IMG/VR virus record: IMGVR_UViG_3300023184_000106
Coordinates: 3,722-67,721 of that record
Length of the DNA stretch: 64,000 bases
Reading direction: 5' to 3' (one strand)
From: a virus
The notes under the pieces are model-generated. The model was not told where the DNA came from. It saw only the letters and a program-made list of their open reading frames with translations, and did no database searches. The position numbers were made by a program, and so were the translations under genes. This document shows, piece after piece, positions 2,373-62,783 of this stretch. How positions within the stretch are numbered: position 1 is the first letter of the stretch; the number at the start of each line of letters is the position of its first letter.

Positions 2373-2607
2373 AATTAATGCCCTCCTTAAATTTAATTTT
2401 TATCCACGACCCTATCTTACCAGAAACAACTTTATTTCTTAATATAGATGAATATTTTTGGTGTCCTAGTGAAGTACCTAGGTACTCTTCTCCTGTTTCC
2501 ATGTCTATTATTTTCCATTTGGATGGAGCCTTGGTGTGTATTATAAGATCAACTGGGTAATCTAGCGATTCAACATTTGACCCATCTTGCAATAGCCTAG
2601 TGTTCAT
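2365..2607 (-). CDS. Hypothetical protein
   Basis: ORF overlapping both neighbours; start moved to MNTRLL. Confidence 0.6.
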   Translation of the reverse strand: MNTRLLQDGSNVESLDYPVDLIIHTKAPSKWKIIDMETGEEYLGTSLGHQKYSSILRNKVVSGKIGSWIKIKFKEGINYE

Positions 2608-4352: not shown

Positions 4353-4492
4353 TATTTAGGGCCTCTGGCCTTTTGACCCCTGTACCCAGTCTTTTTAATA
4401 TTCATTGAACCTGGCTTTTTTTCCCCAGGGGCGTAGGTTGCGGCCTGTCTTTGAGCTAATGCCCTTTTCATTTTATCTAGATGTTTACCCAT
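4352..4492 (-). CDS. Small basic protein (46 aa)
   Basis: Hand-translated MGKHLDKMKRALAQRQAATYAPGEKKPGSMNIKKTGYRGQKARGPK. Confidence 0.6.
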   Translation of the reverse strand: MGKHLDKMKRALAQRQAATYAPGEKKPGSMNIKKTGYRGQKARGPK

Positions 4493-7109: not shown

Positions 7110-7319
7110 CTACTCTCCTTTTAATTCGTCCGCAGCGCTATTAAACTTCTCCATGAATGTTTGAATAACCCACATTGCCGTCTCGCCAGCATTTGTAGAA
7201 AGTGCTTTTGATGCGGCCTCATTTCTATCTTCAAGAGCAATTGAGTTGTACCATTTCTGGTACAACTCCTCGCCAATCTCTTTTATAATTTCTTCTAATA
7301 CAGTTAGCTTATTATCCAT
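7110..7319 (-). CDS. Hypothetical protein
   Basis: 69-aa ORF in operon context. Confidence 0.6.
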   Translation of the reverse strand: MDNKLTVLEEIIKEIGEELYQKWYNSIALEDRNEAASKALSTNAGETAMWVIQTFMEKFNSAADELKGE

Positions 7320-10848: not shown

Positions 10849-11523
10849 TCAAGAGCAAAATGGTATTTCCTTTACATGGCCGATAGATATACTGTTTATA
10901 TCAACGTGTTTTTTTGTATTACATATATAAGATACAATATCAGCAATATCTGAAGGATCAAGGCATTTATCTGACATGCTTGGGTTATTGTGACTATTTA
11001 CGGATGATGGGATAATTTCAGAAACCCTAACACCAGACTTAGCTAGGTCACGTCTTAATATATTAGTAAGAACTGATTGAGCATGTTTTGCTATTGTGTA
11101 AGATGGGGTGGCGTTAAGTATCTCATGCCCAGCTATTGATGTTATATTTATAATTATTGGGTTATCAGATATATTCATTTTAGGAACAACCGACTTGATT
11201 AAATTAAATGTAGATGAGGTATTTAACATAAAGTCACTGCTTATATCTTCTGCATTTTGATTTAAAATATTATCCTTAAACTCCGAAGTACCGCCACCAG
11301 CACAATTTACAAGAATAGAAATAGATTTATCTGATATATACTTAGATAGTCCAGATATTGAATCATTGTCGGTTATGTCTAATTTAAATGGTATTATATT
11401 CCTAGACTCTTCAATTAGATTAATTCTTCTTCCACAGGCTATAACTGTGTATTGATCCGATAACCTATTGGCTATTGATTTTCCAATGCCAAAAGTAGCC
11501 CCAGTAACAATAGCATACTGCAT
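10849..11523 (-). CDS. Short-chain dehydrogenase/reductase (YdfG-like)
   Basis: TGATFGIG, GRR, LVNCAG, ITSIAG, YTIAK. Confidence 0.9.
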   Translation of the reverse strand: MQYAIVTGATFGIGKSIANRLSDQYTVIACGRRINLIEESRNIIPFKLDITDNDSISGLSKYISDKSISILVNCAGGGTSEFKDNILNQNAEDISSDFMLNTSSTFNLIKSVVPKMNISDNPIIINITSIAGHEILNATPSYTIAKHAQSVLTNILRRDLAKSGVRVSEIIPSSVNSHNNPSMSDKCLDPSDIADIVSYICNTKKHVDINSISIGHVKEIPFCS

Positions 11524-12859: not shown

Positions 12860-13038
12860 TCTTTATCATCCCAATCTTTGTTTCTAATAGGATACGTTAC
12901 TGCCCACGCAATTAGTGTGCATACAATTGCATAACCTACTACTGTTTTTGCGGAACCATCAAGGACTACCCAGGCAATAAACATACCTAGAAGTGTCCAA
13001 AGTTGGTCTATCATATCTTGCATTATTTTCTTTATCAT
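12856..13038 (-). CDS. Small two-TM membrane protein
   Basis: Two hydrophobic helices; ATGA overlap with the large upstream gene. Confidence 0.6.
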
Positions 13039-16686: not shown

Positions 16687-17442
16687 TCATATACCCATTT
16701 CTTTACGCTTTTGAGTAGCACTAATAGATTCAATTTCTGCTCCTAACGACACTTGCTCAATTTTATATCCGACATCACGACCATATACAATGTTAGTTAT
16801 ATTAGGCATCTTAATAACCATCGCTTTGTCCATTACTGGATCTTGTGCAATATATCCCCTTACTTGTTCAAAATCTAAGGGATCTTTTTCGCTTGTCTTG
16901 TACGTATTTCTAACACCTAGCATTACTTGAGGAGTTCTGGTTCCCGCCTCTTGATACAAAGCATGATGCCCTTCATGCCATGGCTGATATCTTCCAAGCA
17001 TCAATGTAGTTGGCTGACGCCAATCATGGAGCTGAAAATCAACACATGCAATTCTTGCTGCATCTGTGTATTCTGTTCTGTCATCAAACGTTAAATTTGG
17101 GTTTGCTGGCATTTCCCACATAGCTGTTGTATCTGGAAAATCTCGAACTGGTTTTCTATTCATCCAAACTACTTTGTCTGGATTTCCAAATGATGCTCTT
17201 GTTTCTGCTGTTGGGTTAACAAAATCTACAACCACATGGTATCCTTGATTTGAAAGTAGTCTTGAAAGGGCACCCATTCTGCGAGCTTGCTCAAGCCTAT
17301 CCTCTGGACTAAACCCTAAATCTTTATTTAATTCCGCTCTTACTGCATCGGCATTTAAATGTATAGCATTAATTCTATCAGCAAGTTCTTTTGCAAACGT
17401 AGTTTTGCCTGCTCCTGGCAAGCCTATAACCTGTATAATCAT
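16687..17442 (-). CDS. Adenylylsulfate-kinase-like domain fused to a HIGH-superfamily nucleotidyltransferase
   Basis: GLPGAGKT P-loop, ADAVRAELNKDLGFSPEDR (CysC-like), C-terminal GRYQPWHEGH and ISATQKR. Confidence 0.8.
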   Translation of the reverse strand: MIIQVIGLPGAGKTTFAKELADRINAIHLNADAVRAELNKDLGFSPEDRLEQARRMGALSRLLSNQGYHVVVDFVNPTAETRASFGNPDKVVWMNRKPVRDFPDTTAMWEMPANPNLTFDDRTEYTDAARIACVDFQLHDWRQPTTLMLGRYQPWHEGHHALYQEAGTRTPQVMLGVRNTYKTSEKDPLDFEQVRGYIAQDPVMDKAMVIKMPNITNIVYGRDVGYKIEQVSLGAEIESISATQKRKEMGI

Positions 17443-17471: not shown

Positions 17472-18434
17472 TCATAATACACTTGATCTTTCATCTAAAA
17501 TTTTGTAAAATTTTGTAAAATCTATTTCACAAGCTGCCTCAAATTCTTTTAATTTTTCAATTGATGGGGCACCCCAATACCCTATATAGTCACCCAACAG
17601 AATTTCTCGCATAATCCTTTTACCCTCATTGTACCTTTTCATATAAAACGGGAAAAGCCTTGAGTCATTATTTGCCAAGCTTCTCCAATCATCTTTGTTG
17701 TCTTTCCCATGGGCACCTTTAGTTGTTTTTTTATTATAGTGAAAACATATGTTTGGTTTAATAGAAAACATCTGGTATCCTCTGCACCACGCACGCAAAG
17801 AATATATTGGCTCATCTCCACCCCAAACAATCCTGGGATCATGCAAAATTTCAGAATATAAGTCTGGCCTGCTAAAAGTAAATTGAGCAGATATTAAATT
17901 GTGTTCTATATAATCACCGTTTTCAAAACCAACACCTTCTATTGTTGGGTATCCGTCTTGAAATGCAGAAACCTCTGAGTCTTTAAATATTAATTTTTGA
18001 GGACTATTTGATACTTCGGCATATAAAATACTGCCCGACTCATCATAAGTCCATGCTGGCGCTCTTGAGCTGATGATTGGTTTTTTTGCTATCTTTTCAA
18101 GTTTATTAAAGCATTCCACTATTGTGGTGTCCCAATGTTTAACAAATATCATATGTGAGTCTAGCTGCAAAACGTAGTTGGTGTCTGGCATAATAATAGA
18201 TGAAGCAATTAGTCTAGCCAGGCCGACACCTTGTGTCCCACTAAATTCCATATTCATATAAAAAACATTTTTAATATCTGTAAAATCAGTTTTTGTAAAG
18301 CCGTTCAGGCATGAATCAAATATGACAAATGATAGATTGTCTGGGTTATCTGCATTATCTATAGCGCTTAAAACAGTTTGTTTTAAATCCTTCTCATTAG
18401 CGCTAATAATTGCTACCAAAATTTTACTGCTCAT
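17472..18434 (-). CDS. GT-A glycosyltransferase, GT60/Skp1-hydroxyproline GlcNAc-transferase-like
   Basis: SAIDNADNPDNLSF, GVGLAR, YVLQLDSHMIFVKHWD, GDEP..SLRAW.RGY; leaderless TATACT-N6-ATG. Confidence 0.75.
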   Translation of the reverse strand: MSSKILVAIISANEKDLKQTVLSAIDNADNPDNLSFVIFDSCLNGFTKTDFTDIKNVFYMNMEFSGTQGVGLARLIASSIIMPDTNYVLQLDSHMIFVKHWDTTIVECFNKLEKIAKKPIISSRAPAWTYDESGSILYAEVSNSPQKLIFKDSEVSAFQDGYPTIEGVGFENGDYIEHNLISAQFTFSRPDLYSEILHDPRIVWGGDEPIYSLRAWCRGYQMFSIKPNICFHYNKKTTKGAHGKDNKDDWRSLANNDSRLFPFYMKRYNEGKRIMREILLGDYIGYWGAPSIEKLKEFEAACEIDFTKFYKILDERSSVL

Positions 18435-18464
18435 ATTATAAGTATACCTTTCTTTTTGCTAGGG

Positions 18465-18536
18465 CACCCCTGGCTGGAATCGAACCAGCGACAAACAGAT
18501 TAGAAGTCTGTTGCTCTTCCGCTGAGCTACAAAGGT
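18465..18536 (-). tRNA. tRNA-Arg(TCT)
   Basis: Cloverleaf ACCTTTG/CAGGGGT acceptor, GCTC/GAGC D-stem, ACAGA-CTTCTAA-TCTGT anticodon arm, GCTGG-TTCGATT-CCAGC T-arm; no encoded CCA; TTGACT-N17-TATAAT promoter inside the end of the upstream gene. Confidence 0.92.
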
Positions 18537-19958
18537 TTATGTTAATATATTATACCCGTAATATTGTTGCCAGTCAATAGTGTCTTGAATATCATTTAAT
18601 AGAGGTTGGCCCTTTATGTTTAAACTAGTATTTAATAACATTGGAACTCCAGTTTGTAAATAAAATTTATTTAAAACTCTGTGTAATCCTGGATGCTGAT
18701 CCCTTGTTACTGTTTGTACTCTAGATGTTCCATCAAAATGAACAACAGAAGGAACCCTTGATGGCTGCAAGCATTTAACTGTATACTGCATATATGGACT
18801 TTCAAAATCCATATCGAACCATTTAGATGCATGATCCGCCATAACAACTGGAGCAAAGGGTCTAAACAGCTCTCTTTGTTTAATTAAATTTACTTTATTT
18901 TTTATATTAGGATCTCTAGGATCCGCAAGTATACTTCTATTACCAAGTGCCCTTGGTCCGTATTCTGCTCTTCCTGATGCAACTGCAACAACACCATCTT
19001 TTAATATGCCATCAATAATTTTTTGAACTGGGTACTCTCCACCTAAATCATGGCCTAAATATGGAGACTTCCATTCCAAATGTTTACCGTACAATGCTGC
19101 AGCGGCACCCAAAGAACTTCCAGCATCTCCAGGGTTTGGCATTATCCATATCATGTCAAATATATTCCACAACAAAGTATTTGCTGAAGAGTTAAGAGCA
19201 CACCCACCCATAAATACTAAATTGTTTTTACCAGTAAGAGACTTTGCCATACGCATAAATTGATTTAGTCTTTGCTCATAAACTACTTGTACTGCTGCAG
19301 CAATATCAAATTTATCTTGTTCTGAAATCCAGCCCCAGTCGGTGATTCCCTTATGAAAATTATATTTTTGCTTATCATAACTTGGAAAATAATCATCTAC
19401 TTCCTTATAATACTTTTTCCAGTCTCCGTGTGCTGCCATACCCATCATTATATATTCTTCTTGATTTGGCATAAGTCCGATTAGCTGAGTAAAAGCTGAG
19501 TAGAATAATCCAAAACTAACTGGATAGTTTTGTTTATATTTCAACTTAATTTTTTCACCTTCTCCAACCCATATTGTTGATGTATTGTATTCTCCAATAG
19601 CATCTAGTACCACTATTGCGGCGTCATTAAATTTACTTGTATAGTATCCTGCTGCTGCATGAGAGTAATGGTGGCTAAAAGATTTTTTAGGTATACCTGA
19701 AATATTGAATCTTGGCTTCCATTCCCCAGAACCGCCCCTTAGAAGCAGTCTGGAGGCTTTTAGAAGAGGTTTTTCGTAGTAGGCGATAGCATCAGGTGCG
19801 CCATAAGATAAGGCATCCTCAATCAAGCCGTCAGCAATATACCAGTCATTCTTTTTCTTGCTATATCTTTCAGAATGTCCTGCAAATAATATCTCACCAT
19901 CTTTAATTAAAGATAGTGATGCGTCATGAGATGTTTCATTAACCCCTAATATTATCAT
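18537..19958 (-). CDS. O-carbamoyltransferase (NodU/CmcH/TobZ family)
   Basis: SHDAS, ERYS, HHYSHA, DAIGE, GGCALN, GDAGSSLG, EYGPRALGNRS, FRPFAP, LNTSLN. Confidence 0.95.
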   Translation of the reverse strand: MIILGVNETSHDASLSLIKDGEILFAGHSERYSKKKNDWYIADGLIEDALSYGAPDAIAYYEKPLLKASRLLLRGGSGEWKPRFNISGIPKKSFSHHYSHAAAGYYTSKFNDAAIVVLDAIGEYNTSTIWVGEGEKIKLKYKQNYPVSFGLFYSAFTQLIGLMPNQEEYIMMGMAAHGDWKKYYKEVDDYFPSYDKQKYNFHKGITDWGWISEQDKFDIAAAVQVVYEQRLNQFMRMAKSLTGKNNLVFMGGCALNSSANTLLWNIFDMIWIMPNPGDAGSSLGAAAALYGKHLEWKSPYLGHDLGGEYPVQKIIDGILKDGVVAVASGRAEYGPRALGNRSILADPRDPNIKNKVNLIKQRELFRPFAPVVMADHASKWFDMDFESPYMQYTVKCLQPSRVPSVVHFDGTSRVQTVTRDQHPGLHRVLNKFYLQTGVPMLLNTSLNIKGQPLLNDIQDTIDWQQYYGYNILT

Positions 19959-20018: not shown

Positions 20019-20846
20019 TTAATTATTTTTATAATTTATAAACTCCTCATAAAACTTTTCTGCCCATACTTTATGAAACCCTTTGCCAAAATGAAAGCCG
20101 TCCCTTGCGACTAAATCCTCTATCTTAATGCCCCAATGATCTTTCCCTGACGGTGCAGTTAAAACATAATCCGAAGAATCATACTCTGTAAATATTCCAA
20201 TAGGGTAACTATCTGGGTGCCAAGTGGACCAATAAAGTTTTACAGAATTTATTTTGCAAAATTGAATTAATGTTCTTAAAATAAAATTACTAAAAAATAT
20301 ATTTATATTAAGCTCAGGAATTTCGCCACCTTTAGTAAAAAAATCTAAAAATTTAGAATCTAATTTTGTTAGCTCTTTTTTATTTTTATATACTGGATGA
20401 ATTAATTTTTCTTCTGACCAGGAAAGGTACCTGCTGTGATCTGGAAGTTGTAGAAATATGTAATCTGGAATTCCATAATCACTAATATACTGAAAAATAT
20501 TTAATATAATTAATGGGGTCGTCAAGCCAGTTTTACCAACATTATAGTAGCCAGACGCATTGATGTCGTTTTTAATTTTATTATATAAAACATGTGACCA
20601 TGTGTCCTCTAGTAAATTAGACGCCCCCTCTGTTTCGGAACATCCTCCAAACAATACGTGCGTCCCGACATGCTCTTTTATAAAATTATCACACCTAAAC
20701 CCAATATTGTTATATTGATAAATTATACTTAGATCAACCTCCAAACCTAATTCTTTTTCGTATCTTAAACTAAATTCTTCAGTATTTGGAGACAACTCTC
20801 CAAAATATCCTAGAGAAAAAAAGTTATCTCTTTGATTAGATATCAT
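20019..20846 (-). CDS. SGNH-like hypothetical protein
   Basis: FGGCSETEG block-I-like motif and terminal DGFHFG. Confidence 0.55.
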   Translation of the reverse strand: MISNQRDNFFSLGYFGELSPNTEEFSLRYEKELGLEVDLSIIYQYNNIGFRCDNFIKEHVGTHVLFGGCSETEGASNLLEDTWSHVLYNKIKNDINASGYYNVGKTGLTTPLIILNIFQYISDYGIPDYIFLQLPDHSRYLSWSEEKLIHPVYKNKKELTKLDSKFLDFFTKGGEIPELNINIFFSNFILRTLIQFCKINSVKLYWSTWHPDSYPIGIFTEYDSSDYVLTAPSGKDHWGIKIEDLVARDGFHFGKGFHKVWAEKFYEEFINYKNN

Positions 20847-21774
20847 TTGTTAAAATAAGTTTTCCAAGTGTTATTCTATCTCTTATTTTTTCATGCATGA
20901 TCTTTGCATCTTTTAGGCTCATCTTATCTCCGATAATAATCTTAATCTTTTTATTTTTAATTAAATCAAATAATGCATTTACAACATTTGCTAATCTATC
21001 TGAGTCATGTAAGAATAAGGCAGTTCCCCAAAATCCAGAGACTGTCTTTGTGTCCTTAAGCAAATCTCTTATCTGAATAGATGGAAGTCCATCTCTAGAT
21101 GAAGCTCCGTATGAGCATATGTGTCCACCAGTAGAAAGCATTGCGTAGTACCCCATGAAATGTTTGCCTCCGTATGATTCCATGATAAATTTTGGCCTGC
21201 ACCCTATTGACTTTATTATTTTATTTATTTCAGTATCTAGAAAAGCAAAATCTACACCTAGAGTTTTAATAAATTCTATCTTTTGCTCACTTGAAGTAAC
21301 TCCTACTACAGTAGCACCAGCAAGTTTACACAGCTGAATTAAAATCATTCCGACTGCGCTTGAGGCACCATTGACCAAAACAACGTCACCTGGCAATATA
21401 TTGCAGACATCGTTTACAATTCCATATGCTGTGGATCCTTGACATATGACAGACAGGGCTTCTTCTTCAGTCACGCCTTCTGGAACCTCAAACATTTTGT
21501 CTTTATTAATAATAATTTTTTCTGCATAAGCACCGCTTGATGTGTAACCTACAAATAATTTATTGTCCAGAATAAAGGAAGCCTCAATGCCAGGTATGAC
21601 TGGTGGTAGGGACTGAACTAAATAAGTATTTTCTGTTTGATAGGTGTCGGCATAGTTTACGCCAATCATTCTAGTATCCGCTACTACCTGGTTACTATTT
21701 GGTATTGGATCCCTGTAGTCAACATATTCCATAACTTCTGGTCCACCAAACGACTTTACAACAATTGCTTTCAT
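20836..21774 (-). CDS. NADPH:quinone oxidoreductase (Zn-independent MDR family)
   Basis: FGGPEVM, GVNYAD, PGIE, GAYAE, GASSAVG, GKLIL. Confidence 0.9.
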   Translation of the reverse strand: MKAIVVKSFGGPEVMEYVDYRDPIPNSNQVVADTRMIGVNYADTYQTENTYLVQSLPPVIPGIEASFILDNKLFVGYTSSGAYAEKIIINKDKMFEVPEGVTEEEALSVICQGSTAYGIVNDVCNILPGDVVLVNGASSAVGMILIQLCKLAGATVVGVTSSEQKIEFIKTLGVDFAFLDTEINKIIKSIGCRPKFIMESYGGKHFMGYYAMLSTGGHICSYGASSRDGLPSIQIRDLLKDTKTVSGFWGTALFLHDSDRLANVVNALFDLIKNKKIKIIIGDKMSLKDAKIMHEKIRDRITLGKLILTNDI

Positions 21775-23197: not shown

Positions 23198-23212
23198 CTA
23201 CTTACCTTTCTG

Positions 23213-23286
23213 TGCAACAGCTCGGACTTGAACCGAGGATTACCGAATTATGAGTTCGGGGCTTTAACCAACTAAGCTACTGTTGC
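23213..23286 (-). tRNA. tRNA with CAT anticodon (Ile2/lysidine or elongator Met)
   Basis: GCAACAG/CTGTTGC acceptor, CCGAA-CTCATAA-TTCGG anticodon arm, CTCGG-TTCAAGT-CCGAG T-arm; own TTGACA-N18-TATACT promoter. Confidence 0.9.
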
Positions 23287-29600: not shown

Positions 29601-29758
29601 GACATAAACCTCTGAACAATCCCATACCCCATCCATAAACCAAAGATTCCCATAAGCCCCGCAAAAACTGGTGGGGCAGGAACTGGTAGCTTAAAGATGC
29701 TAAATACTGCCCCAACTCCCATACCAGTAAGTGTTGTTAAAAATACTTCTTTAATCAT
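29597..29758 (-). CDS. XapX/DUF1427-like small membrane protein (53 aa)
   Basis: Hand-translated MIKEVFLTTLTGMGVGAVFSIFKLPVPAPPVFAGLMGIFGLWMGYGIVQRFMS; LPVPAPP hairpin motif. Confidence 0.75.
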   Translation of the reverse strand: MIKEVFLTTLTGMGVGAVFSIFKLPVPAPPVFAGLMGIFGLWMGYGIVQRFMS

Positions 29759-30708
29759 TGGTCTCTTCCGTCTATGTATGTTTCCGATTTAATATAAATT
29801 GGAACTGATGGATCGCTATCGTTTGGAGCCCCACCTTCAAAAATTAATTGTCTTCCCACATTCCCAGCATCTTCAAAATCTTTTACTTTATCATTTGTCA
29901 TCCTTAACCAAAGTGCTAGCCCGTGATTCTTTAATCCGTTATTCCATTCTTTAGTACCTGAGCTTCTATACAGACCAAATGTTCTAATGAATACTTTATT
30001 CGATCCGCCAGTTACGGCTCTTGCCCCATGCCAATATGGTCTACCAGACGGGAATACGGTGACATCGCCACGCTTTGGCTTATATACAATTAAATTTCCA
30101 GTTGCTTCATCAACAAAGTCTATTTCCCCTCCTTCGTAATCATCGTTAATATAAATTGTGTATGTGAGTATCTGCTTTGGCCCTGGCTCATCTTTTCTGT
30201 GATCGTGCCAGTCTGTGTGAACTCCAATTGTATAATCTTTTTCTAAATTAAGTTTGTGTTGTAGTATTTCAAAACTAGACAAACACATATTGTCTAGATT
30301 ATCCGTTTCACGTTCAAAAATATCCCACTTAGGAATATCATAGGTCCAGTCTCCAGCGTCTTTCCATTTTTCTATATAATCAAAATGGGCTTTGCCAATT
30401 GCGTCTTGAAGAATTAAATAACCCATAGCCTGCGGGGATTGATCCCCGATATCTTTTATAGAACCCCAAACGCTTTTTATACCGTAGGTGTACCATGACT
30501 CCCATGTACGAATTAGGCTTCCATCCTTTTTATCTCTAGGCTCTTCCCCGTGATAATCATTTAAAACTGATTCAAGTGGATCAAGCGAATCGTGGCTTAT
30601 CATATCTTCTTGAGACTTACTAATTTCTGCAAATATAAGATCCAAATCTTTATCAGAAATTAAATTTTTATATACTGTAATTTGAGGTAATATTTCAATT
30701 TTATCCAT
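29755..30708 (-). CDS. 2OG-Fe(II) oxygenase (prolyl-4-hydroxylase-like)
   Basis: HTD, YINDDYEGGEI, KPKRGDVTVFPS, WHG, distal K. Confidence 0.85.
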   Translation of the reverse strand: MDKIEILPQITVYKNLISDKDLDLIFAEISKSQEDMISHDSLDPLESVLNDYHGEEPRDKKDGSLIRTWESWYTYGIKSVWGSIKDIGDQSPQAMGYLILQDAIGKAHFDYIEKWKDAGDWTYDIPKWDIFERETDNLDNMCLSSFEILQHKLNLEKDYTIGVHTDWHDHRKDEPGPKQILTYTIYINDDYEGGEIDFVDEATGNLIVYKPKRGDVTVFPSGRPYWHGARAVTGGSNKVFIRTFGLYRSSGTKEWNNGLKNHGLALWLRMTNDKVKDFEDAGNVGRQLIFEGGAPNDSDPSVPIYIKSETYIDGRDQ

Positions 30709-53980: not shown

Positions 53981-56900
53981 TAATTGCTCCTCCCTGGTCC
54001 TACTTGGCCGCTATAATTCTTTTCCATATCTTTAATAACCTTTATTGTTTTCATGGTTACCCTATTGCTTAATGACTCTATATCCATTCCTTCTGGAGCG
54101 GTTATATAGTTAGTAATATTTACTCCGCCTCCGCCCGAATTTCTTGTAGGCTCAAAGAATTTTTGCGCCTGTTGAACATCAAATCTAGGGGATGAGTATG
54201 GAATATCAGACATATTTGGAATAACCATATTACCAAACACCAATTCTGGTCCTCGGTCTCCAACAATTGTTGGGACCATTGGGTTAATTTTATCTATTCC
54301 GTACCCAGCCTTGACAACACCATATGTTGTATCATGGTCACCTGTGGGAGGTTGCATGATTTTCCAAGTTTTACCATCTTTATCAGTAAAGGTACTGCCT
54401 ACTTTGGGGGTTATCCCAGCTGCTTGGAATTGTCTAATATCCACTTCATATGATTTATTATTTCGTGAATCAGTTACAGTGCCAACTGATAAACCAGGTG
54501 TTGCTTTCGCTCCAGGGACCTTGTATCCCATTGCTGCGGCTAATTCTTTAATGGTCATTCCACCAGCAATACCCTTAACAATAGAATCTGCATTTTTATT
54601 TGCCGCTGCAATATCTGATGCTATTGTTCCAGCAATTGTTGGATTAATTCCCGTTGTTCCCATTACGCCGCCAGGTAAGAGTGGGGTAGTTGTCTTTAAA
54701 GGTGTTGGCTTACCATTTTTATCAAATAAATTTAATTTTTCAAATGCGTCTTTTACGCTTTTTGCTAGAAGCGTGTTGCCAGTACCAGATTTTTGTATTT
54801 CTGCAAATAGTGCAATAAGGTTTTCATTTGATGTTTTTGTAGCAGCGCCTTGTTTAGATGGATCAAGAAATTGAATATCATTTTTTTGCTGCAACAGATT
54901 TTCATATCTACCTTTAAATGCAGTTATTGCGGTTGATGCAGCTTGGGCATCAGCAGATTTTTCTGCTGCTATTGCTGCTTTTCTGGCAGCCGCATCTATG
55001 CTAGCCTGAACTGCTTCAGCTTTTTTCTGTGCCGCTGCTGCTTTTTTATCTGCATCATCACGTATAGCCTCTTGTGCAAGTTGCATTTGATATTCTTTTG
55101 TTAATTGCTGCTGTTTAATTTGAGCTTGTGCAGCTGCGGCCATATCTCCTCTTGCAATAGCATCTTGATATTCTAGTTGCGTTTGTAGTGAGTTTAGTTG
55201 ATAGCTTTCTGCATTTTGTATTTTTTGCATTGCCTTAAGCTTGGCATCTGCTTCATCTTGAATTAATTTAATTTTTTTATTAATTGCTTTAATTTCATCT
55301 TCAGCATTTCTTTGTGATTGCGCTGCTGCCCTTGCTGATGCTTGTGAGTTTGAATCGATTATTTTCTTTAGGCCTGTAAGGGTTTTCCCCATTGTTGAAA
55401 ATGTAGTTGATGGGCCTGCTGCTGTTGCAAGATTATTCATTGCAGTTCCAAAAGCTGAATTAAATGCTGCTAGGCCAATTGCTGCCTCTGAACTTATTTC
55501 TTTAAAGTTTACAACAATATCAGAACTGTACAATTGCCATTTAGCCAACATGCCAGCTATTGAGTCGGCGCTGTTTGATATTGCTTGGAATTCTGGAGGC
55601 AGATTAGAAAATGCGCTCTCGCCCATTCCTTTGGTAAATCCTGGAACACTTGAAAGCTTTTCCATTGAAATTCTAAATGCATCTGCTGCTGTTATAATTT
55701 TTCCAAACTCATCTTTGGTGCCAACAAGTGAGTTCTGGTATTGGCTAAAGGAATTTATAACAGAAGATATTCCTTCAATTGTTGCAGTTTTTAAATCATC
55801 AAAACCTGAATCTTTTATGCTTCCGTCAAGTACTTTTGTAAAACTTTCAATACTATATTTAGCAGCAGTTGCCTTATCGGTAATGCCCATAAATCCAGCA
55901 TCTGAAAGAACTGCAAATGCGCTACTTGCATTTTTTGAAACTGATATAGATGCGTAAATCTTTTTATTGGCTTCTTCAACACTCATGCCAGCTGCAAGGA
56001 ATTGAGCCTTTATGTTAGTTGCTGTTTGTATAATGTTATTCTGTCCTACAGAACTAAATGTATCTACAAACTCTCCTAAATTCTTTTTAGCATTTTCTTT
56101 TTCTTTTTTAAGATCTGTTATGGATAAAGTTAATCCTGGGACAGAAGACCCTTGATAAGCTCCCTTTGCTGATGCAAACATTGCTTTCTGTCTTTCTGAA
56201 ACAAGCTTCATGGTATCTGCTAACTTAAAGTATTTAATACCCGCTTGCTCGGCACCCTTTTCCGTCATACCAAAAGTTAATTGTGTATTTTGATGAAGTT
56301 GATCCATATGCTTTTTAAGAGCGTATATGGCTGATCCTAAAGTTATAATTGCGCCTATTGGGCCTGCAAATTTAAATTTAGTTAATACGTTAACAAATGC
56401 TTTTGCCGTAAAAGATCCACCTCTAAGTGCAGTTGCTGCTCCTTTTACTCCAGTAGCTAATGCTTTTGCACCACTTGCAAGTTTAGGACCCATCATAGGA
56501 AGTATGCTTGAACCAATCATTACTCCCATACCAAGATTTTGATTTTGTTGCATGAGCGCCATTCCAGCCATTTGGCCGCCCATCATAGTGCCCATTCCTG
56601 CTCCACCACTCATAGTTCCTCGTGGAGCAACTAGACCCTTTTGTACAGCCTGTTGTCTTGTTATTGCTTGTCCGTCTACTTGATATTGTGTTTTTCTAAA
56701 TCCCAGATATCCGCTCTTTCTGCTTTCTACAGTACCTACGCCTTCTACTTGACTTGACATCCAAGGGGTTAACCCTATAGGCCCAGTAATTGCGTTAGGT
56801 TTGTACTGCGTGTTAAGTGTCCCAGCTTCTCTATGTTGTTGATATGCTTCATTTCTTAATAAAGATCTTCCCATCTTGGCTTGAATTTCTGCTTGTCTTG

Positions 56901-59900
56901 CGGCAGATGCGGCGATGGACGCTGCTTTTTTTGCAGCGTTACCCATAGACTTTCCAGCATCAGAGTATGCTGTTCCAATATAATTTCCTGAAACTGATAA
57001 AGTTTGTTTTAATAATTTTGATCCATGGGAAACTGAAACTGAAAGGTTTTTAAAAGCAGATGCAATATCTGCTCCGTTCCCAATTTGTGCCATTCTTAAA
57101 GTGCTGATAACACTGCTTGCAGATGGTGTAAATCCTCCACTATACGCATTTCCAGACACACCTGCGCCACCGACATATGGTGTGCGAGAAACACTCATTT
57201 GTGAATTGCCAGATGAGGTGTATGATGATTCCGATGATCCTCTATACGAGGCGGCTCTTTCTGCTTTTGCTCTTACTTGTTCTGCTCTTGCAGCTGGGTT
57301 ACCCTTTTTACCGTATGAACGCTTACCGCTAGTAATTGGGCCACCATAGTTAAAACCAGGAACCTTGGAGTGCATATCATGATACTTTCTCCAATCAACC
57401 GATCTACCAGCCTCTAAGCGCTTAACCATTTTTTGATAAAGGGCTGCCTCAACTCTTGTTAATTTAAATGATTTTATAACCTGCTTAAGCTTAGGCAATA
57501 CCCTATTTATTTCCTCTATCATTAAATGATGATATTGATCTGGAGTCATCTTTCTTGCAATATCTGATGTAGCCATTGCAAAATCTTTTCGTGCTCCACC
57601 CTTTACTCCAAGTAGGTTAACGGTTGCTTGCTGCGCCATTGAAGGAAGATTAAAGTTATACTCTCTTTGTCCTGAAGCTCTTCCAAATACGCCGCCTGCG
57701 CCTTCATCTGCCATGTTATTGCCAAATACATTGCTTGAAGAAAGATCTTTATCATTACGGACTAATGATGCAACTAATTGCCTTATGTATTGTTTTTGTG
57801 TAAAGCTTCTTCCACCCTTTGCAAGCCTAGCATCGTATGGAGATTCAAGAACTATTACTTTTCTCTTACCTGCGGGATCTGTTGGATCAATCATTGTTCT
57901 AATTGTGTGCTTGGCTGTATTTAATCCGTTTGCACGTCGTGCTATTTCCGTAGCCCTGAGTGATGCAATAGCTGATCTTTCGTCTAGCTGTGGCTTAACA
58001 AATGATCTAGACCCATCTGGCTTTAGCCAAACTCCGCCTATTCCTTCTACTGGAAAGCTATGTCCTGTTGATTTGGTTTCAAGTGTTCCAAAATTAGTTG
58101 GCTTAATTCTTTTAAATCTGCTTGAAGATACCCTGGCTGAAATTTTATCCATGATCCCACCATTGAGGATGCTTGTGTTGTATGCCTGAATTTTTTCTCT
58201 AATCCAGGGGTACCTGGCCATGTTTTTTTCATGTTCTGCAGCGTACCTAGCCTGCTGAGCTACTCTAAAAGCTTCTAATCTTGGAGAGAGTCCGTATGAA
58301 GATCTATTTGCAGATATTGATCCCCCTGGGATTCCGCCACCCATGTTTCTCTTAAGGAACATTTTTGCCATAAGTTTAGCAAGAGCTTGTCTACTAGTGT
58401 TAAAAGATTTTCCGCTATATGTTCCAAGTAGACCTTTTGCCACAGAAGAAAGTTTGGATTTTTCAATTGAAGTTAAACCCGATGCACCTTTAATTAATGT
58501 TCGTAAAGCAACATTTGTTTTCTCGCCCCTTGGTCCGTAAGGTTGAAGTACGGAATTAAATAATGATTTAAATGATTTTGATCCGACTCTTATTGAGCTA
58601 AATGATCTAGAAGGAAGTATTTCTTTTTGAAACCATTGTTCAAAAGTTAAGTCTCCATTGTTTCCGCCAAATACTCTACCGTCTTTTTCAAGCTTACTTA
58701 TCATTTCCTTGAAGACTTTATTAAATTTATCTTGATTCCTTGGATCGCCACCAAGGTTATCGGATGCGGTCATCCATGGCTCAAAGGGGTGTCGTCCTGC
58801 TCTTATTGCTTTTTGAAATTCGTTTGCTAACTGAGGACCAGTCATTCCTCTGCCAGTTGAACGTGTTTCTTGATTAGCATCTGCCGTCATCCAAATTGGA
58901 ATTCCCTTGCCTACGCTTACAGTGTTCTTATAATTAACAAAGTTACCGAGAGAGTCTGTATAACCACTTTGAGATCTAACGTCTCTTATATCAGATGCTG
59001 AACCCATTGCTACATGACTTCTTTCAAATCTGGGAGTGCCATCTGCATTGTAACGAGATCGTGGGTTTTGTCTTCCGTACGATTTTAATCCTCTTTTAAT
59101 CTGCCCGCCAAAACTGTATCCATTATTTGCAGCATCTACTGCGGCATAAAGTTCAGGATCTTTTTCAATCTTTGGCCCAAATACTGTTTCTCCTGGAGTC
59201 AAGTTGGCAGTTATCTCTCCGCCACTGTTCAAGTATGTTTGTGGTGCCATCGCAACAAGGTCAGCATTTGCTGGGTCCATTGAGGCTTGCTGGTTTAAAA
59301 CATACCCTCCAACTGGAACATTCCCCAGTCTGTCATCATAATTAATTGATGTTGATCCGCTTACTGTTGTTTTATTTGCATGAAATCCTTCAATACGACC
59401 ACCCTCATAAAATCTTGGCAGTCTTGTTGTTTCTATTGAATAGGGTGCACCAAATGTTCTTACTCCACGTAGTCGCCCAAACTCTTCCATTACTGCACGG
59501 TTTGATTGCTTCTTGTATAAATCTCTAAGGGTAAATTGTCCATTAACATCAACAACTGGTTGATTCATTAATGGTGCTCTATTTAGGTTAAGTGTTCTTC
59601 CTCTGCTACCAGCAAATGATGTTAGCGCTGATCCCATCATTGTTTCAATTTCTGAATTAAGCGCCATGATTCTAGCTTTTGCTTGGTCTACAGTCATTTT
59701 CCCAGCTTTTAATTCAGCAACTATGGCAGCTGAACCAGCTGCTGCTTTATCAGTAAACATTGATGTAATTGGGAGAATGTCATCAAAAGTTCCAAGAAGT
59801 TCTGAGCTTACTGTTCCACCCAACGCAATAGTCTTTTTTAGTGACTCAACTTCTGCTTTTGTTTGCATTCCTAACGTGGCCATTAATGCGTGGAATCTTG

Positions 59901-62115
59901 CAGCTTCTCCAGAAACTATTCCTGTGGAGATACCCTTTACGGATGTGAGCCCTTCGTAATCTGGAAGTCTTTGATCCATATATACTTGCGGAGCTCTTTG
60001 AATTCCTCTATTAACTGGTATTGCTGCTGGAACAACTCCCATCAATGATGCTGGTCTTTGTGGATCCCTCGGAAGAATGTGAGCCATAGCTCTTGTATTT
60101 TCATCCCCAGATAATCTGTTTGTTGGATCTACTTCTCTTCTTATTGAAGCTGAACCAGACATTATTGCGCTTCCCTGCACTGTGGCCACACTAGGATTTA
60201 CTGGAACTGCTCCCTTTAACATTTGTGTATTTAAATTTGCATAGTCTGAAATTAATTTTTTCAGTGCTACATCTAAAACTTGTGCTGCAGCTGCATCTGA
60301 GTAGAACGATTTTTCAACTAGTTTTGCAGCTTTTTCTGCAGCTATTATTTCTGGAGTCAACATCTTCCATCCAGAAGCGCCCTTGAAAAATGCTCTTAGG
60401 TTAACGACACCTTTAATAATGTATCCAAAGAAGTTAGCAAGTACACCAGTTAACATAATAAGTGGACCAGCTACCGCTGTTAATCCTCCTAAAAATGTTA
60501 ATGCTTGTTTTAATGGCTTAGGAAGCATGTTAAAGAAATTAATAACCTTATCAATAACTCCAATTACAATTGTTCCTATTTTTAAAAACTGCTCTCCCAA
60601 TTGAGCCATATCGGCCTTGAGTCCTTCTATTGCTCGTTTATACTTTCCAGATGCAGATTCTGTAACTTGTGCTAACTCTCGACCTGCCACATTAGCTAAA
60701 TCTTGTGATGATGCTTTCATTAAATCCATAACCTGTAGTGTTTGCGAACCTTGCTTACCTAAATTTGCAAATAGAGCGTTCATTCTAGCAAATTGAAACT
60801 TACCAAATAACTGCTCTAAAGCTTGCTGCTTTTGAAGCGGATTAAGTTTTTCTAAGGCTTTTTGTAGTGATAAAAGTGTTGCTGTTACATCTCCTGCATT
60901 ATTTTGAACTATACCCATCAGATCAATGCCAAAACCTTTAAATCTATCTGTTGCAACTTTTGTTGGGTTAATAAGAGATGCAAGTCCTGACTTTAATGCG
61001 TTAGCGCCTTCTGATGCATTAATTCCACCTTCTCTCATTGCTGTTAGATATAAGGCAAGATCTTTTACGTCTCCACCTAGGCCTTGTATAATTGGTCCAG
61101 CTTTTGGAATAGCTTCTACAAGATCTTGTAGTGTTGTAGAAGTTTGGTTTTCAACTGCGTTCAAAAAATCAATAGATTTTGATAGTTCATCTGTATTTAA
61201 TTTAAATGCTGTTTGAAGTGATAATGTTGCTTTCATTGCATCTTGTCTATCAATTTCACCAAGTACCGCAAGTCTGGTAGTTTCTTTTACTGAGACAAGC
61301 AAATCATTTCCTTGCTTACCAGTTGCTGCAATATCTGCTGCTAATGAGATTGTATCTTTAAAATTAACACCCATAGCTTTTGATAGCGCTTTAGAAGTAT
61401 CAACAACTTCTTTTCTAATTTTAGATAAATCTTGTGCAGAAGATCCCGCAATATCTCCGTAAACCTTTGTTAATCTTACCAGTTCAGAGTCCGCCTCTCT
61501 AAATGCTTTAGCGGCTGCTACGCCAAACATTGTTAAAGGTACTGTTAATCCAACGGTAAGCTGTCTACCAGCCCACTGAGTATTCTTACCCCAGTTAACC
61601 ATTGCTGTAGATCCTTCAGATAATGTTTTATTCATTATCTGCAATTCCATTCTGGCTAGTGCAGCTTTATTTTTTACTAAGTCTAATCCTCTTGGCACAG
61701 CAACGTTAAACTGCATTAACCCCTGGGCATTTCGGCCAAGGGGTTGCAGGATTGCGTTTTGAAGCATTACTTGCTCTTTAGCAAGCTCTCTTATTAATCC
61801 ACCAGATGTTCTTGCGTGTGTCTGAAATACAGAAGAAAACTCTTTAAGTTTTAATCTTCCCGAGTCTAAGTTCTTGCCAAATTTTTCTACATCGGATGTT
61901 AAGTTAACAAAGTGTGATGAGAATAGTCCGCTTTTTACTAAGTTATCTGAAAATAAATTGTTAGATACTTTTGTAGCAGCAGCAATTGATTTGTTAGATG
62001 AAAGAAGTTCTCTTTGTAATTGCTGTAGACTTGCCGTGGCCCTGTGTACTTCAGACACAAGACTTGATAAGTCGGCTTTGGCGACTATACTGGTTACAAT
62101 TTGTTCATCAGCCAT
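53980..62115 (-). CDS. Tape measure protein with inserted globular cassettes
   Basis: 2711 aa; TP901-type N-terminal core (GRQLTVGLTVPL, EGANALKS, LEQLFGK), TM-like segments, VGDRGPELV near the C-terminus; follows the tail chaperones. Confidence 0.92.
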   Translation of the reverse strand: MADEQIVTSIVAKADLSSLVSEVHRATASLQQLQRELLSSNKSIAAATKVSNNLFSDNLVKSGLFSSHFVNLTSDVEKFGKNLDSGRLKLKEFSSVFQTHARTSGGLIRELAKEQVMLQNAILQPLGRNAQGLMQFNVAVPRGLDLVKNKAALARMELQIMNKTLSEGSTAMVNWGKNTQWAGRQLTVGLTVPLTMFGVAAAKAFREADSELVRLTKVYGDIAGSSAQDLSKIRKEVVDTSKALSKAMGVNFKDTISLAADIAATGKQGNDLLVSVKETTRLAVLGEIDRQDAMKATLSLQTAFKLNTDELSKSIDFLNAVENQTSTTLQDLVEAIPKAGPIIQGLGGDVKDLALYLTAMREGGINASEGANALKSGLASLINPTKVATDRFKGFGIDLMGIVQNNAGDVTATLLSLQKALEKLNPLQKQQALEQLFGKFQFARMNALFANLGKQGSQTLQVMDLMKASSQDLANVAGRELAQVTESASGKYKRAIEGLKADMAQLGEQFLKIGTIVIGVIDKVINFFNMLPKPLKQALTFLGGLTAVAGPLIMLTGVLANFFGYIIKGVVNLRAFFKGASGWKMLTPEIIAAEKAAKLVEKSFYSDAAAAQVLDVALKKLISDYANLNTQMLKGAVPVNPSVATVQGSAIMSGSASIRREVDPTNRLSGDENTRAMAHILPRDPQRPASLMGVVPAAIPVNRGIQRAPQVYMDQRLPDYEGLTSVKGISTGIVSGEAARFHALMATLGMQTKAEVESLKKTIALGGTVSSELLGTFDDILPITSMFTDKAAAGSAAIVAELKAGKMTVDQAKARIMALNSEIETMMGSALTSFAGSRGRTLNLNRAPLMNQPVVDVNGQFTLRDLYKKQSNRAVMEEFGRLRGVRTFGAPYSIETTRLPRFYEGGRIEGFHANKTTVSGSTSINYDDRLGNVPVGGYVLNQQASMDPANADLVAMAPQTYLNSGGEITANLTPGETVFGPKIEKDPELYAAVDAANNGYSFGGQIKRGLKSYGRQNPRSRYNADGTPRFERSHVAMGSASDIRDVRSQSGYTDSLGNFVNYKNTVSVGKGIPIWMTADANQETRSTGRGMTGPQLANEFQKAIRAGRHPFEPWMTASDNLGGDPRNQDKFNKVFKEMISKLEKDGRVFGGNNGDLTFEQWFQKEILPSRSFSSIRVGSKSFKSLFNSVLQPYGPRGEKTNVALRTLIKGASGLTSIEKSKLSSVAKGLLGTYSGKSFNTSRQALAKLMAKMFLKRNMGGGIPGGSISANRSSYGLSPRLEAFRVAQQARYAAEHEKNMARYPWIREKIQAYNTSILNGGIMDKISARVSSSRFKRIKPTNFGTLETKSTGHSFPVEGIGGVWLKPDGSRSFVKPQLDERSAIASLRATEIARRANGLNTAKHTIRTMIDPTDPAGKRKVIVLESPYDARLAKGGRSFTQKQYIRQLVASLVRNDKDLSSSNVFGNNMADEGAGGVFGRASGQREYNFNLPSMAQQATVNLLGVKGGARKDFAMATSDIARKMTPDQYHHLMIEEINRVLPKLKQVIKSFKLTRVEAALYQKMVKRLEAGRSVDWRKYHDMHSKVPGFNYGGPITSGKRSYGKKGNPAARAEQVRAKAERAASYRGSSESSYTSSGNSQMSVSRTPYVGGAGVSGNAYSGGFTPSASSVISTLRMAQIGNGADIASAFKNLSVSVSHGSKLLKQTLSVSGNYIGTAYSDAGKSMGNAAKKAASIAASAARQAEIQAKMGRSLLRNEAYQQHREAGTLNTQYKPNAITGPIGLTPWMSSQVEGVGTVESRKSGYLGFRKTQYQVDGQAITRQQAVQKGLVAPRGTMSGGAGMGTMMGGQMAGMALMQQNQNLGMGVMIGSSILPMMGPKLASGAKALATGVKGAATALRGGSFTAKAFVNVLTKFKFAGPIGAIITLGSAIYALKKHMDQLHQNTQLTFGMTEKGAEQAGIKYFKLADTMKLVSERQKAMFASAKGAYQGSSVPGLTLSITDLKKEKENAKKNLGEFVDTFSSVGQNNIIQTATNIKAQFLAAGMSVEEANKKIYASISVSKNASSAFAVLSDAGFMGITDKATAAKYSIESFTKVLDGSIKDSGFDDLKTATIEGISSVINSFSQYQNSLVGTKDEFGKIITAADAFRISMEKLSSVPGFTKGMGESAFSNLPPEFQAISNSADSIAGMLAKWQLYSSDIVVNFKEISSEAAIGLAAFNSAFGTAMNNLATAAGPSTTFSTMGKTLTGLKKIIDSNSQASARAAAQSQRNAEDEIKAINKKIKLIQDEADAKLKAMQKIQNAESYQLNSLQTQLEYQDAIARGDMAAAAQAQIKQQQLTKEYQMQLAQEAIRDDADKKAAAAQKKAEAVQASIDAAARKAAIAAEKSADAQAASTAITAFKGRYENLLQQKNDIQFLDPSKQGAATKTSNENLIALFAEIQKSGTGNTLLAKSVKDAFEKLNLFDKNGKPTPLKTTTPLLPGGVMGTTGINPTIAGTIASDIAAANKNADSIVKGIAGGMTIKELAAAMGYKVPGAKATPGLSVGTVTDSRNNKSYEVDIRQFQAAGITPKVGSTFTDKDGKTWKIMQPPTGDHDTTYGVVKAGYGIDKINPMVPTIVGDRGPELVFGNMVIPNMSDIPYSSPRFDVQQAQKFFEPTRNSGGGGVNITNYITAPEGMDIESLSNRVTMKTIKVIKDMEKNYSGQVGPGRSN

Positions 62116-62124
62116 TTATTACAA

Positions 62125-62493
62125 TTACTCCTTAGAGTACCCTAGTCCCATTCCTACTCCGAATCCAGCTTCTGCTGCGAATTGTCCTTGCAAACCAACA
62201 ACATCATCTGCTGATGAATTGATACCAAGGGCCCTTCGTTTAACATCTTCAAAGGATGGACCTGCACTTTCTACTTCTTCATCTAGGTTTACACCTTTTA
62301 ACGAAGCAGTAAACTTTCTCTGGTTATGTTCTTTATCATGCATTGATTTCAATGTAATGATAAGTTCTGGCATTGATAAATTTGTTTCTAACTCTTCGTA
62401 ATTCTTCCAATGTCCTAAAAGAAATACTTCACCCTCTAGAGCGGCTAAATCTAGTTCTGACCAGCCAGTACCGCTGCCGCTATGAGGTTTGGG
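62125..62493 (-). CDS. Tail assembly chaperone, frameshifted C-terminal part (gpT-like)
   Basis: The -1 frame is open from the slippery site through WSELDLAALEGEVFLLGHWKNYEELE to the stop at 62125. Confidence 0.75.
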   Translation of the reverse strand, partial: PKPHSGSGTGWSELDLAALEGEVFLLGHWKNYEELETNLSMPELIITLKSMHDKEHNQRKFTASLKGVNLDEEVESAGPSFEDVKRRALGINSSADDVVGLQGQFAAEAGFGVGMGLGYSKE

Positions 62494-62783
62494 TCGTCCA
62501 TCTTAATTCCTCCGCACACTTCCATGATGCGATTGATTGTTGGAACGTCTAGCGCATCTTCAAATGCATCTAGGTTTTTTGTTAACTCTGGTAGCTGTGT
62601 TTCAAGTGCAATCGCACATGCCTCTACCAATACACTTAGTGTTTGATCTTCTTCTGTTACGTTTTGCGTTTTCTGTACCACTACCATAAACTTTCTAAGT
62701 TGCTTAATAGAAAGCGGCTTAAGTAAAACTTTATCGCCATTCTGTAACTGAATTTCTTCTACATCGTAGATTTTTGTAGCCAA
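62451..62783 (-). CDS. Tail assembly chaperone (gpG-like)
   Basis: Between major tail and TMP genes; SD AAGGAGG, TTG start. Confidence 0.8.
   Translation of the reverse strand: MATKIYDVEEIQLQNGDKVLLKPLSIKQLRKFMVVVQKTQNVTEEDQTLSVLVEACAIALETQLPELTKNLDAFEDALDVPTINRIMEVCGGIKMDDPNLIAAAVLAGQN
62487..62493 (-). other. Programmed -1 ribosomal frameshift heptamer C CCA AAC
   Basis: X XXY YYZ pattern in the correct phase (GAC CCA AAC, D-P-N). Confidence 0.75.

Follow-up and report, generated by a model that had tools for sequence, protein, structure and literature searches.

Modules that do not act as a ruler have been described before in phage tape measure proteins (TMPs). The mycobacteriophage TMP motifs (the Rpf-like motif 1 and motifs 2 and 3) resemble free-standing cellular proteins, vary from one related phage to another and are presumed to function at infection, as set out in the available part of Piuri and Hatfull (2006; PMC1796659). 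Polyvalent proteins, in the accessible text of Iyer et al. (2017; PMC5512222), combine many effector-type domains (kinases, ADP-ribosyltransferases, lysozymes, peptidases) in one polypeptide that is proposed to enter the host with the DNA, and cassette-like recombination is suggested there too; the term 'tape measure' does not occur in that text. These are the closest concepts for the protein that we describe here, a giant TMP encoded in 64,000 nucleotides of an uncultured phage (positions 3,722 to 67,721 of IMG/VR virus record IMGVR_UViG_3300023184_000106; this whole stretch is referred to as the window, and coordinates are counted from its first letter). All results are computational. Our reading of them, to which we give a probability of about 0.6, is that the TMP is a modular, 'polyvalent' virion protein in which a fixed kinase-like module (B) and an exchanged slot, occupied here by cassette A, would be delivered to the host as pre-made enzymes.

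The mycobacteriophage motifs are small peptidoglycan hydrolases of the wall, whereas the window TMP carries a fixed domain of ~260 amino acids (aa) that is kinase-like and would need ATP. Unlike those TMPs, as far as the available text covers them (PMC1796659), its family has a slot that is bounded by defined linkers and takes cassettes of four or more unrelated families, and A is a cassette that appears to have no recognisable fold. The kinases of polyvalent proteins are described in the accessible text (PMC5512222) as a truncated Ser/Thr/Tyr-kinase group without the C-lobe, whereas B is modelled as a full bilobal core like those of CotH, PI4KII and HipA; a metallopeptidase of the kind proposed to separate the domains of polyvalent proteins was not found in the window TMP. 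The TMP of TP901-1, which belongs to the same family (TIGR01760), has two hydrophobic regions and, in the pages available (PMC5099701), the 129 aa between them are predicted to be cytoplasmic, compared with ~1260 aa (aa 574-1835) in the window TMP, where this stretch holds the modules. Polymorphic toxins and large phage head, portal or MuF-type proteins with C-terminal effector domains also join a constant delivery part to domains that are exchangeable at a conserved junction; the MuF comparison draws on the UniProt names of structural matches in BFVD. Their exchange is C-terminal, whereas in the window family it is internal and in a protein of the tail lumen. According to the accessible part of Benler et al. 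(2021; PMC8008677), T7 and 933W are the sources of the only two protein kinases of phages to have been characterised, and none of the phage kinases named there (T7, 933W, CotH-lectin, HipA-like) lies within a TMP. A literature search, which left out most subscription journals and supplements, returned no paper on a kinase-like or swappable TMP module.

Architecture of the tape measure protein

The giant TMP is open reading frame (ORF) P0001 (53980..62115, 2711 aa), which, like all its parts given below, lies on the minus strand. We assign it to the TP901-type TMPs because hidden Markov models of the family score above their cut-offs and because the gene stands in a tail module. TIGR01760 (tape_meas_TP901) matches aa 192-550 (E 7.1e-31; 107.5 bits against a curated cut-off of 28.8), Pfam PF10145 (PhageMin_Tail) matches aa 239-438 (E 6.6e-30; 104.9 bits against 33.2), and the best PHROG TMP family is phrog_10030 (1e-118). 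The ORF is the longest gene of the tail module. Upstream of it stand an Ig-domain tail protein gene and two small ORFs; downstream come an ORF of 186 aa, a minor tail protein of 1103 aa and a further tail protein. Both the family matches and this synteny bear out the first-pass annotation, made from the letters of the window, which had called the protein a TMP.

The IMG/VR record is 67.7 kb long and estimated to be 63% complete, and the window covers most of it. Related TMPs are found on contigs of up to ~115-120 kb, and the source is probably a siphovirus of about 110 kb. Its nearest cultured relatives are Streptomyces phages of ~130 kb, with 34% identity that is confined to the TMP N-terminus; the minor tail protein is 25% identical to a cultured Streptomyces phage counterpart. 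The TP901-type core (aa 192-550, 60466..61542; defined by TIGR01760) is the sole part common to the TMP of Streptomyces phage LilMartin, the nearest cultured one, which shares only aa 20-609 and contains no copy of the composite linker described below.

The core runs into a first hydrophobic region (aa 537-573, 60397..60507; Kyte-Doolittle window mean up to 1.87), and beyond it lies a string of what appear to be autonomous modules (aa ~880-1610) joined by short, glycine-rich linkers that are probably disordered. The string opens with a constant 'pre' module (aa 881-1014, 59074..59475), which phmmer matches in 120 of 120 relatives and which has three GGxI copies (aa 905, 965 and 1003); the copy at ~905 is present in 121/121 relatives and that at ~965 in 106/121. 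The part of this module that was modelled (aa 940-1020) is of low confidence. A stretch within it, GGYVL...GGEI...TPGETVF (59179-59322, aa ~935-982), gives a weak GroES-like match (E 0.09-0.36), and the GG...GE.V elements of the module may form a small beta structure. The motif search places linker 1, YSFGGQIKRGLKSYG, at aa 1000-1014 (59074..59118), linker 2, NMGGGIPGGSISANRSSYG, at aa 1257-1275 (58291..58347) and linker 3, FNYGGPITSGKRSYG, at aa 1588-1602 (57310..57354). Linkers 1 and 2 bracket cassette A (aa 1015-1256, 58348..59073), an orphan alpha/beta domain in a variable slot, and linkers 2 and 3 bracket module B (aa 1276-1587, 57355..58290), which consists of two N-terminal helices and an atypical protein-kinase-like domain. 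At 242 and 312 aa the two bracketed segments agree with the ~240 and ~310 aa estimated earlier. Downstream there is a Gly/Met-rich and second hydrophobic stretch (aa 1836-1934, 56314..56610; Kyte-Doolittle 1.32-1.37 at aa 1906-1934) that is kept in the family consensus, so that the modules are located between the hydrophobic region at aa 537-573 and this stretch. The C-terminal element VGDRGPELVF (aa 2618-2627, 54235..54264) recurs in relatives as GG...VGE.GPELF.

A conserved kinase-like module

Module B was modelled with AlphaFold over aa 1255-1622 from a 52-row alignment. The model has a mean predicted local distance difference test score (pLDDT) of 83 and a predicted template modelling score of 0.73, and pLDDT falls below 50 solely in the two linkers, at model residues 1-22 and 334-352. 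The modelled domain has a bilobal kinase fold. In a Foldseek search against PDB there was no match at E ≤1e-3, and all of the matches listed are kinases; a second look at the structure gave CotH 12.3, CtkA 11.2, MavQ 10.8, PI4KII-alpha 10.0, LepB 9.6 and HipA 9.3. The order of elements is kinase-like. A G-x-S-x-P-V-x-G-x-x-G motif lies between strands 1 and 2, F-V-K is in the third strand, behind which come a helix and two strands that close with L-E-S, and after a further helix comes D-L-S-x-S-N, with D-x-G thirteen residues on.

Conservation was read from 129 aligned sequences, that of the window and 128 representatives with 27-56% identity to the query. Residues G1351, S1353, G1361, K1374, Q1446, N1462, D1470 and Y1560 are invariant (129/129), and in the catalytic loop and metal-binding region D1457 is kept in 128/129 and G1472 in 126/129. 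The module accordingly displays a Gly-rich loop, a strand-3 Lys, a D-x-x-x-x-N loop and a metal-binding Asp equivalent to that of DFG, the first two having been placed via the secondary structure of the model. From the model and these residues we regard B as a putative atypical protein-kinase-like phosphotransferase; whether it would act on protein or lipid cannot be told from the modelled fold.

Sequence families gave no counterpart. With a limit of E 10, Pfam returned no family above chance level for segment B or the 'pre' module, nor did it return one for 17 short relatives at E up to 1; PHROGs and NCBIfam, both searched to E 1, likewise gave only chance-level rows for the two segments. A single-sequence search of PDB sequences found nothing for B, while a PDB search with alignment profiles, which spanned the whole TMP, found coiled-coil regions only. 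PADLOC reported nothing for A or B. The kinase part of a B homologue in the ESM Atlas gave leads only (HipA_2, LepB_N and PI3_PI4 at 0.86). B is 9-14% identical to the CotH, CtkA, MavQ/PI4KII and HipA kinases (PDB 5jd9/5jda, 3akk, 7m7a, 4hnd, 4pu4) and, in contrast to them, is seen in giant TMPs only; nor is it matched by the sequence models of CotH (PF08757), PI3_PI4_kinase (PF00454) or HipA. Its likeness to CotH, PI4KII and HipA is one of fold only, and we do not file it as a member of those families.

B is a constant module, present in all 120 best phmmer relatives. An exhaustive HMMER scan of 1.84 billion representatives (clusters at 50% identity) found it at E up to 1e-3 in at least 168 clusters, and 192 viral contigs in IMG/VR hold loci that encode a relative. 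In the same scan B was seen solely within giant TMPs: the proteins that bear it are nearly all 2000-4400 aa long, and most of the shorter ones start mid-domain and are fragment-like. PhageMin_Tail was found in 11 of the 13 members of the wide family that were checked with Pfam; two of the 13 are N-terminal fragments. Across the kinase region and 2 kb to either side, 79 of the 80 related viral loci kept have one open frame, and the modules are therefore at least made as a single polypeptide. The only broken frame is in locus L036 (3371-3407), where a frameshift coincides with the GG linker ...REK|GGPV... and could be a sequencing error or a real split. Neither A nor B has a match among 50,697 deposited phage genomes. 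Searches with single sequences and profiles also found no relative in one genome for each of 185,579 prokaryotic species, a sampling that does not prove the absence of prophage copies. The top structural matches of B in BFVD are large phage proteins (E 4.5e-6 to 8.5e-4) annotated as ADP-ribosyltransferase, HK97 portal, PI3/4-kinase-domain and head-morphogenesis proteins, and kinase-like domains fused to virion proteins may be a wider theme.

Glycine-rich linkers delimit an exchanged slot

The first-pass annotation had noticed three GG-x-I...SYG copies with two weaker ones just upstream, and had proposed that cargo domains are swapped at the linker. All five copies were placed within one codon: the starts of the three linkers were right and their upper ends each one codon too long, which is trivial. 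The weaker copies are FYEGGRI (aa 902-908, 59392-59412) and LNSGGEI (aa 962-968, 59212-59232). SYG occurs exactly three times in the 2711 aa, each time 8-13 residues past a GGxI. The composite GG.[IV].{3,16}SYG is observed three times, compared with none in 19,863, one in 136, two in 1 and three in 0 of 20,000 protein shuffles, which rules out a chance or low-complexity origin of the repeat; GG.I alone is observed seven times against a shuffle mean of 1.3, and at least seven copies are reached by 0.03% of shuffles. Read side by side by eye, the coding DNA of the copies has no extended nucleotide identity, and the repeat is thus kept at the peptide level.

The linkers have the form aromatic-x-x-G-G-x-[IV]...[KR]-x-S-Y-G, the Ser of S-Y-G frequently being Ala in relatives. 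Counts were taken in the 121 closest family members. At the boundary between 'pre' and slot A, GGx[IVLM] is found in 113/121 and GG...[YF]G in 104/121; within the 110 aa before the kinase core the figures are 121/121 and 119/121, and past the kinase both are 82/121. In a wider set of 128 more divergent relatives other linker forms substitute, often ...YADGVVSVPG...GDVVPAMLSPGEAVIP. Linkers 2 and 3, which flank the kinase, are modelled as disordered (pLDDT <50). GGx[IVLM] is also frequent elsewhere in the TMPs of the family, with a mean of 16.5 per protein or 5.2 per 1000 aa, and is often followed by a ...GE.V or ...GPELF element that is present at the C-terminus as well. Together these counts support the motif as a real, conserved inter-module linker.

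Between linkers 1 and 2 the proteins of the family differ. Cassette A is found in only 23 of 120 relatives, and the stretch from 'pre' to kinase falls into four BLAST clusters of 76, 24, 16 and 5 among 121 proteins. In profile-profile comparison (hhalign) the slot types share nothing except a 19-column linker match (probability 95.9), which coincides with linker 2 and is the only stretch common to slot types I and II. Finer clustering divides the largest slot-A cluster into three. A single-linkage clustering of inter-GG segments merged helical and low-complexity parts and was used solely for labelling slot A and the extensions.

Pairwise comparisons locate the junctions. Cassette A is 66-72% identical to its counterparts in P0009, P0015 and P0018, whose 'pre' modules are 36-39% and kinases 48-51% identical to those of the window; P0007, by contrast, carries a different cassette although its N-terminus, 'pre' module and kinase are 97%, 89% and 80% identical. 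Against P0007 identity is kept through ...FGGQIKRGL(K/R)SYG(R/K)QNP and then lost until ILNGGIM (aa 1317), where it climbs from <35% to ~80% and is kept across the kinase; a second collapse occurs within linker 3 (VPGFN-GG-I). The inner GG motif ILNGGIM (aa 1316-1322, 58150..58170) is the right edge of the exchanged block relative to P0007 and P0008. All 10 pairs compared in which the slot types differ have a divergent block that begins 17-30 residues past the GG of linker 1, just after the linker, and ends 3-15 residues from a GG motif, with a smoothing uncertainty of ~12 residues. Quick FastTree trees require eight changes of slot type on the kinase core and seven on the N-terminus (minimum 3, shuffled mean 41.6), and on the starred branches at least three changes for the slot type of the window. 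GC content of the cassette, overall and at third codon positions, is not anomalous, and hence there is no compositional sign of recent capture.

The alignments thus support exchange of slot A by recombination among four or more unrelated cassette families, with junctions that would lie in the linkers. As in polymorphic toxins, the carrier and its junction are conserved and unrelated domains take turns at the junction. The earlier proposal of swapping holds for this one slot, in which different domains stand between conserved linkers (four unrelated types in 121 relatives, with breakpoints at GG), and does not extend to B, which is constant in 120/120. No immunity gene or toxin signature was found, the adjoining ORFs being tail genes; adjacency was not separately tested and no search for spare cassettes was made.

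Cassette A and the cargo of related tape measure proteins

The model of cassette A (aa 940-1280) has a confident core at aa ~1021-1231 (block pLDDT 70-96), and its flanks, namely the modelled end of 'pre' and linkers 1 and 2, are low. With the globular model of B this agrees with the earlier remark that the two segments do not resemble helical TMP sequence. No structural match to the A model was found, and the ESM Atlas gave no usable match for the A part of a homologue. Pfam, PHROGs and NCBIfam place A in no family, the sole matches being to two PHROGs without a known function (E 0.11 and 0.21), and a single-sequence search of PDB sequences gave no more than four rows (E 0.59-1.6; epoxide hydrolase, cytochrome c peroxidase).

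Homologues of A also exist as free-standing proteins of 267-275 aa, on contigs of up to 56.9 kb, which are 50-54% identical across 93-98% of A (~230 aa). They begin and end exactly at the linker limits of the TMP, and the linkers therefore lie outside an autonomous domain. One of them (L004:507-1307) adjoins DUF6421, a short-chain dehydrogenase and a beta-eliminating lyase, a cellular-looking context. Cassette A is in our view a conserved orphan domain with cellular homologues and without a detectable structural relative; its invariant polar residues (E-R-x-H, ANQ-x-TRS and HPFEPW) suggest a putative active or binding site.

Other TMPs of the family carry enzymes between similar linkers (OmpA, CHAP, LysM, lysozyme, M23 and HAD domains). 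C-terminal extensions of relatives hold OmpA, CHAP, LysM or phage lysozyme domains, and in the wider set the cargo includes Peptidase_M23, PG_binding_1, CHAP with LysM, and a HAD acid phosphatase. The last lies directly past the kinase-like domain in P0131 (aa 713-1137) and P0150 (aa 731-1154) and occurs in P0201 as well; the HAD module of P0267 is bounded on both sides by the same ~20-residue GG linker and resembles a cassette inserted by linker duplication. Next to OmpA in P0015 (aa ~3134-3171) and P0024 (aa ~3119-3159) there are weak matches to ABC1/APH kinase motifs (E 0.002-0.006). This C-terminal extension may be a second, unrelated kinase-like cassette, and its profile does not resemble that of B (hhalign probability 1.3). 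At least two effector-type domains, the kinase-like B and the orphan A, are thus combined in the window TMP, as in polyvalent proteins, and relatives add more.

Discussion

A delivery role for these modules is plausible from TMP biology. Behind a canonical TP901-type core and hydrophobic region, the TMP would exit the tail lumen ahead of the DNA and carry the modules with it. Because it would leave first and the modules lie between hydrophobic regions, they could act as ready enzymes at the host from time zero. B, fixed in the family with its predicted ATP-binding and catalytic residues conserved, would use host ATP on a host protein or lipid, whereas slot A, whose window cassette also exists as a free-standing gene, would be swapped by recombination in the linkers. 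The linkers would serve as flexible joints that let each module thread and refold separately and tolerate exchange. The C-terminal end of a TMP would emerge from the tail first. Wall-active cargo sits at this end in relatives, and a centrally placed module that depends on ATP would suit a later, cytoplasmic exposure. In the accessible text on TP901-1 the C-terminal end is proposed to touch the tail-tip initiator complex (PMC5099701).

Several points weigh against this reading. No Pfam, PHROGs, NCBIfam or PDB-sequence profile recognises B as a kinase, and the call rests on one AlphaFold model together with residue conservation. The putative helix-C Glu, which is Glu in 128/129, is Ser1385 (57964-57966) in the window and in P0002-P0006, while the next closest relatives, P0007 and P0008, retain it; because this clade has Ser at the position, the kinase-like copy of the window may be weakened or inactive. 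A folded domain of ~30 kDa should not fit a tail lumen of ~4 nm and would therefore have to travel unfolded. In mycobacteriophage TM4, deletion of an embedded 114-aa motif made the tail ~20 nm shorter, according to the part of the paper available (PMC1796659), so embedded motifs can act as ruler rather than as extra cargo. For TP901-1, membrane insertion was not confirmed and chaperone binding was favoured for the hydrophobic regions, at least in the text accessible to us (PMC5099701). In the wider set the GG form past the kinase is found in 23/128 and the full form in just 7/128, and the SYG flavour is therefore clade-specific.

Among other explanations, the linkers could be proteolytic processing sites, as the first-pass annotation had also suggested, and the TMP a polyprotein from which A and the kinase are cut free at GG...SYG in tail maturation or after ejection. 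We hold this for rather unlikely as the explanation of the linkers, and it would be compatible with delivery, to which it adds one step. The linkers flanking the kinase are exposed and disordered with GG and YG invariant, and the free-standing A homologues terminate exactly at linker positions. TMPs are commonly processed and can lose their termini or an internal segment in this way (PMC1796659, in the part available), the separation of polyvalent proteins by built-in peptidases has been proposed (PMC5512222, likewise), and the phage itself encodes a subtilase-family protein (7312-8250). Relatives have CHAP or M23 domains, which could separate the modules or could just as well be wall hydrolases. 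By contrast, Pfam searches find no peptidase family in the window TMP, and the motif fits no protease site among those that could be tested. Many relatives have different linker forms, and no natural split at a linker occurs in the 79 of 80 loci with one open frame, the lone exception being the frameshift at a GG motif.

The modules might instead be structural, with B a pseudoenzyme scaffold (a plug, hub or chaperone-docking site), the GG motifs binding a chaperone or the tube lumen, and the slot reflecting relaxed constraint or host-range adaptation. The loss of the helix-C Glu in the window clade would fit such a role, as would the frequency of GGx[IVLM] throughout (5.2 per 1000 aa), often with ...GE.V or ...GPELF as at the C-terminus; in the accessible sources the hydrophobic regions of the TP901-1 TMP are tied to chaperone recruitment (PMC5099701) and embedded segments of the TM4 TMP count toward tail length (PMC1796659). 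Against such a role, the Gly-rich loop and the Lys, Asp, Asn and Asp residues are each kept in 128-129 of the 129 sequences, at only 27-56% identity, a pattern to be expected of an active site and not of a scaffold. The slot A cassettes are not degenerate either, A being 50-54% identical to free-standing proteins with many invariant polar residues, and the cargo of relatives includes bona fide enzymes. We consider a structural role doubtful.

Similarly doubtful is a bolder form of delivery, in which the TMP would be an injection chassis programmable by recombination: the kinase would phosphorylate a host protein or membrane lipid before phage expression, GG...YG would be processing sites, slot A would hold captured cellular domains, and the window copy of A would have a fold new to solved structures. 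In an actinobacterial host, the kinase could conceivably act on inositol lipids in the manner of a PI kinase. Least probable, and in our judgement improbable, is that the kinase-like module acts late in the producing cell, before or during tail assembly, on phage or host proteins or on the Ser/Tyr linkers of the TMP, and is merely carried in the virion: the TMP is produced late, in a cytoplasm rich in ATP, the kinase has a Basic-x-S-Y-G linker on either side and Benler et al. argued for a late role of a HipA-like kinase encoded among head genes (PMC8008677, accessible part), but such a role leaves the fusion to an expelled protein and the wall-active cargo in the same chassis unexplained, and the Ser of S-Y-G is often Ala in relatives.

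Other features of the window

The two small ORFs that separate the TMP gene from that of the Ig-domain tail protein (62125..62783, minus strand) match phrog_10504 and phrog_10474, PHROGs of unknown function, and from their position would be putative tail assembly chaperones. An unusual run of metabolic-type genes occupies 235-30708 on the minus strand. It comprises a cytochrome P450 (1086-2372), two short-chain dehydrogenases (2597-3301 and 10849-11523), a luciferase-like monooxygenase (4485-5279), the subtilase (7312-8250), an APS-kinase-like protein (16687-17442), a GlcNAc glycosyltransferase (17472-18434), a carbamoyltransferase (18537-19958), a Zn-dehydrogenase (20836-21774) and a 2OG-Fe(II) oxygenase (29755-30708), which together look like a small-molecule modification pathway. 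Genes for tRNA-Arg(tct) (18463-18536) and tRNA-Met(cat) (23212-23286) lie on the same strand, as does a 906-aa ORF with a TTG start (13035-15755) in the most GC-rich part of the window (0.40-0.43 compared with ~0.36), for which PHROGs and Pfam gave no match.

Significance

A conserved kinase-like enzyme appears to be built into the only tail protein that is ejected into the host. Provided that this enzyme is active, takeover of the host or counter-defence could start before phage transcription. The linkers and the exchanged slot mark where a TMP tolerates foreign domains, and they may offer a template for engineered phage cargo. The family also makes the capacity of a siphovirus tail to carry protein into the cell directly testable.

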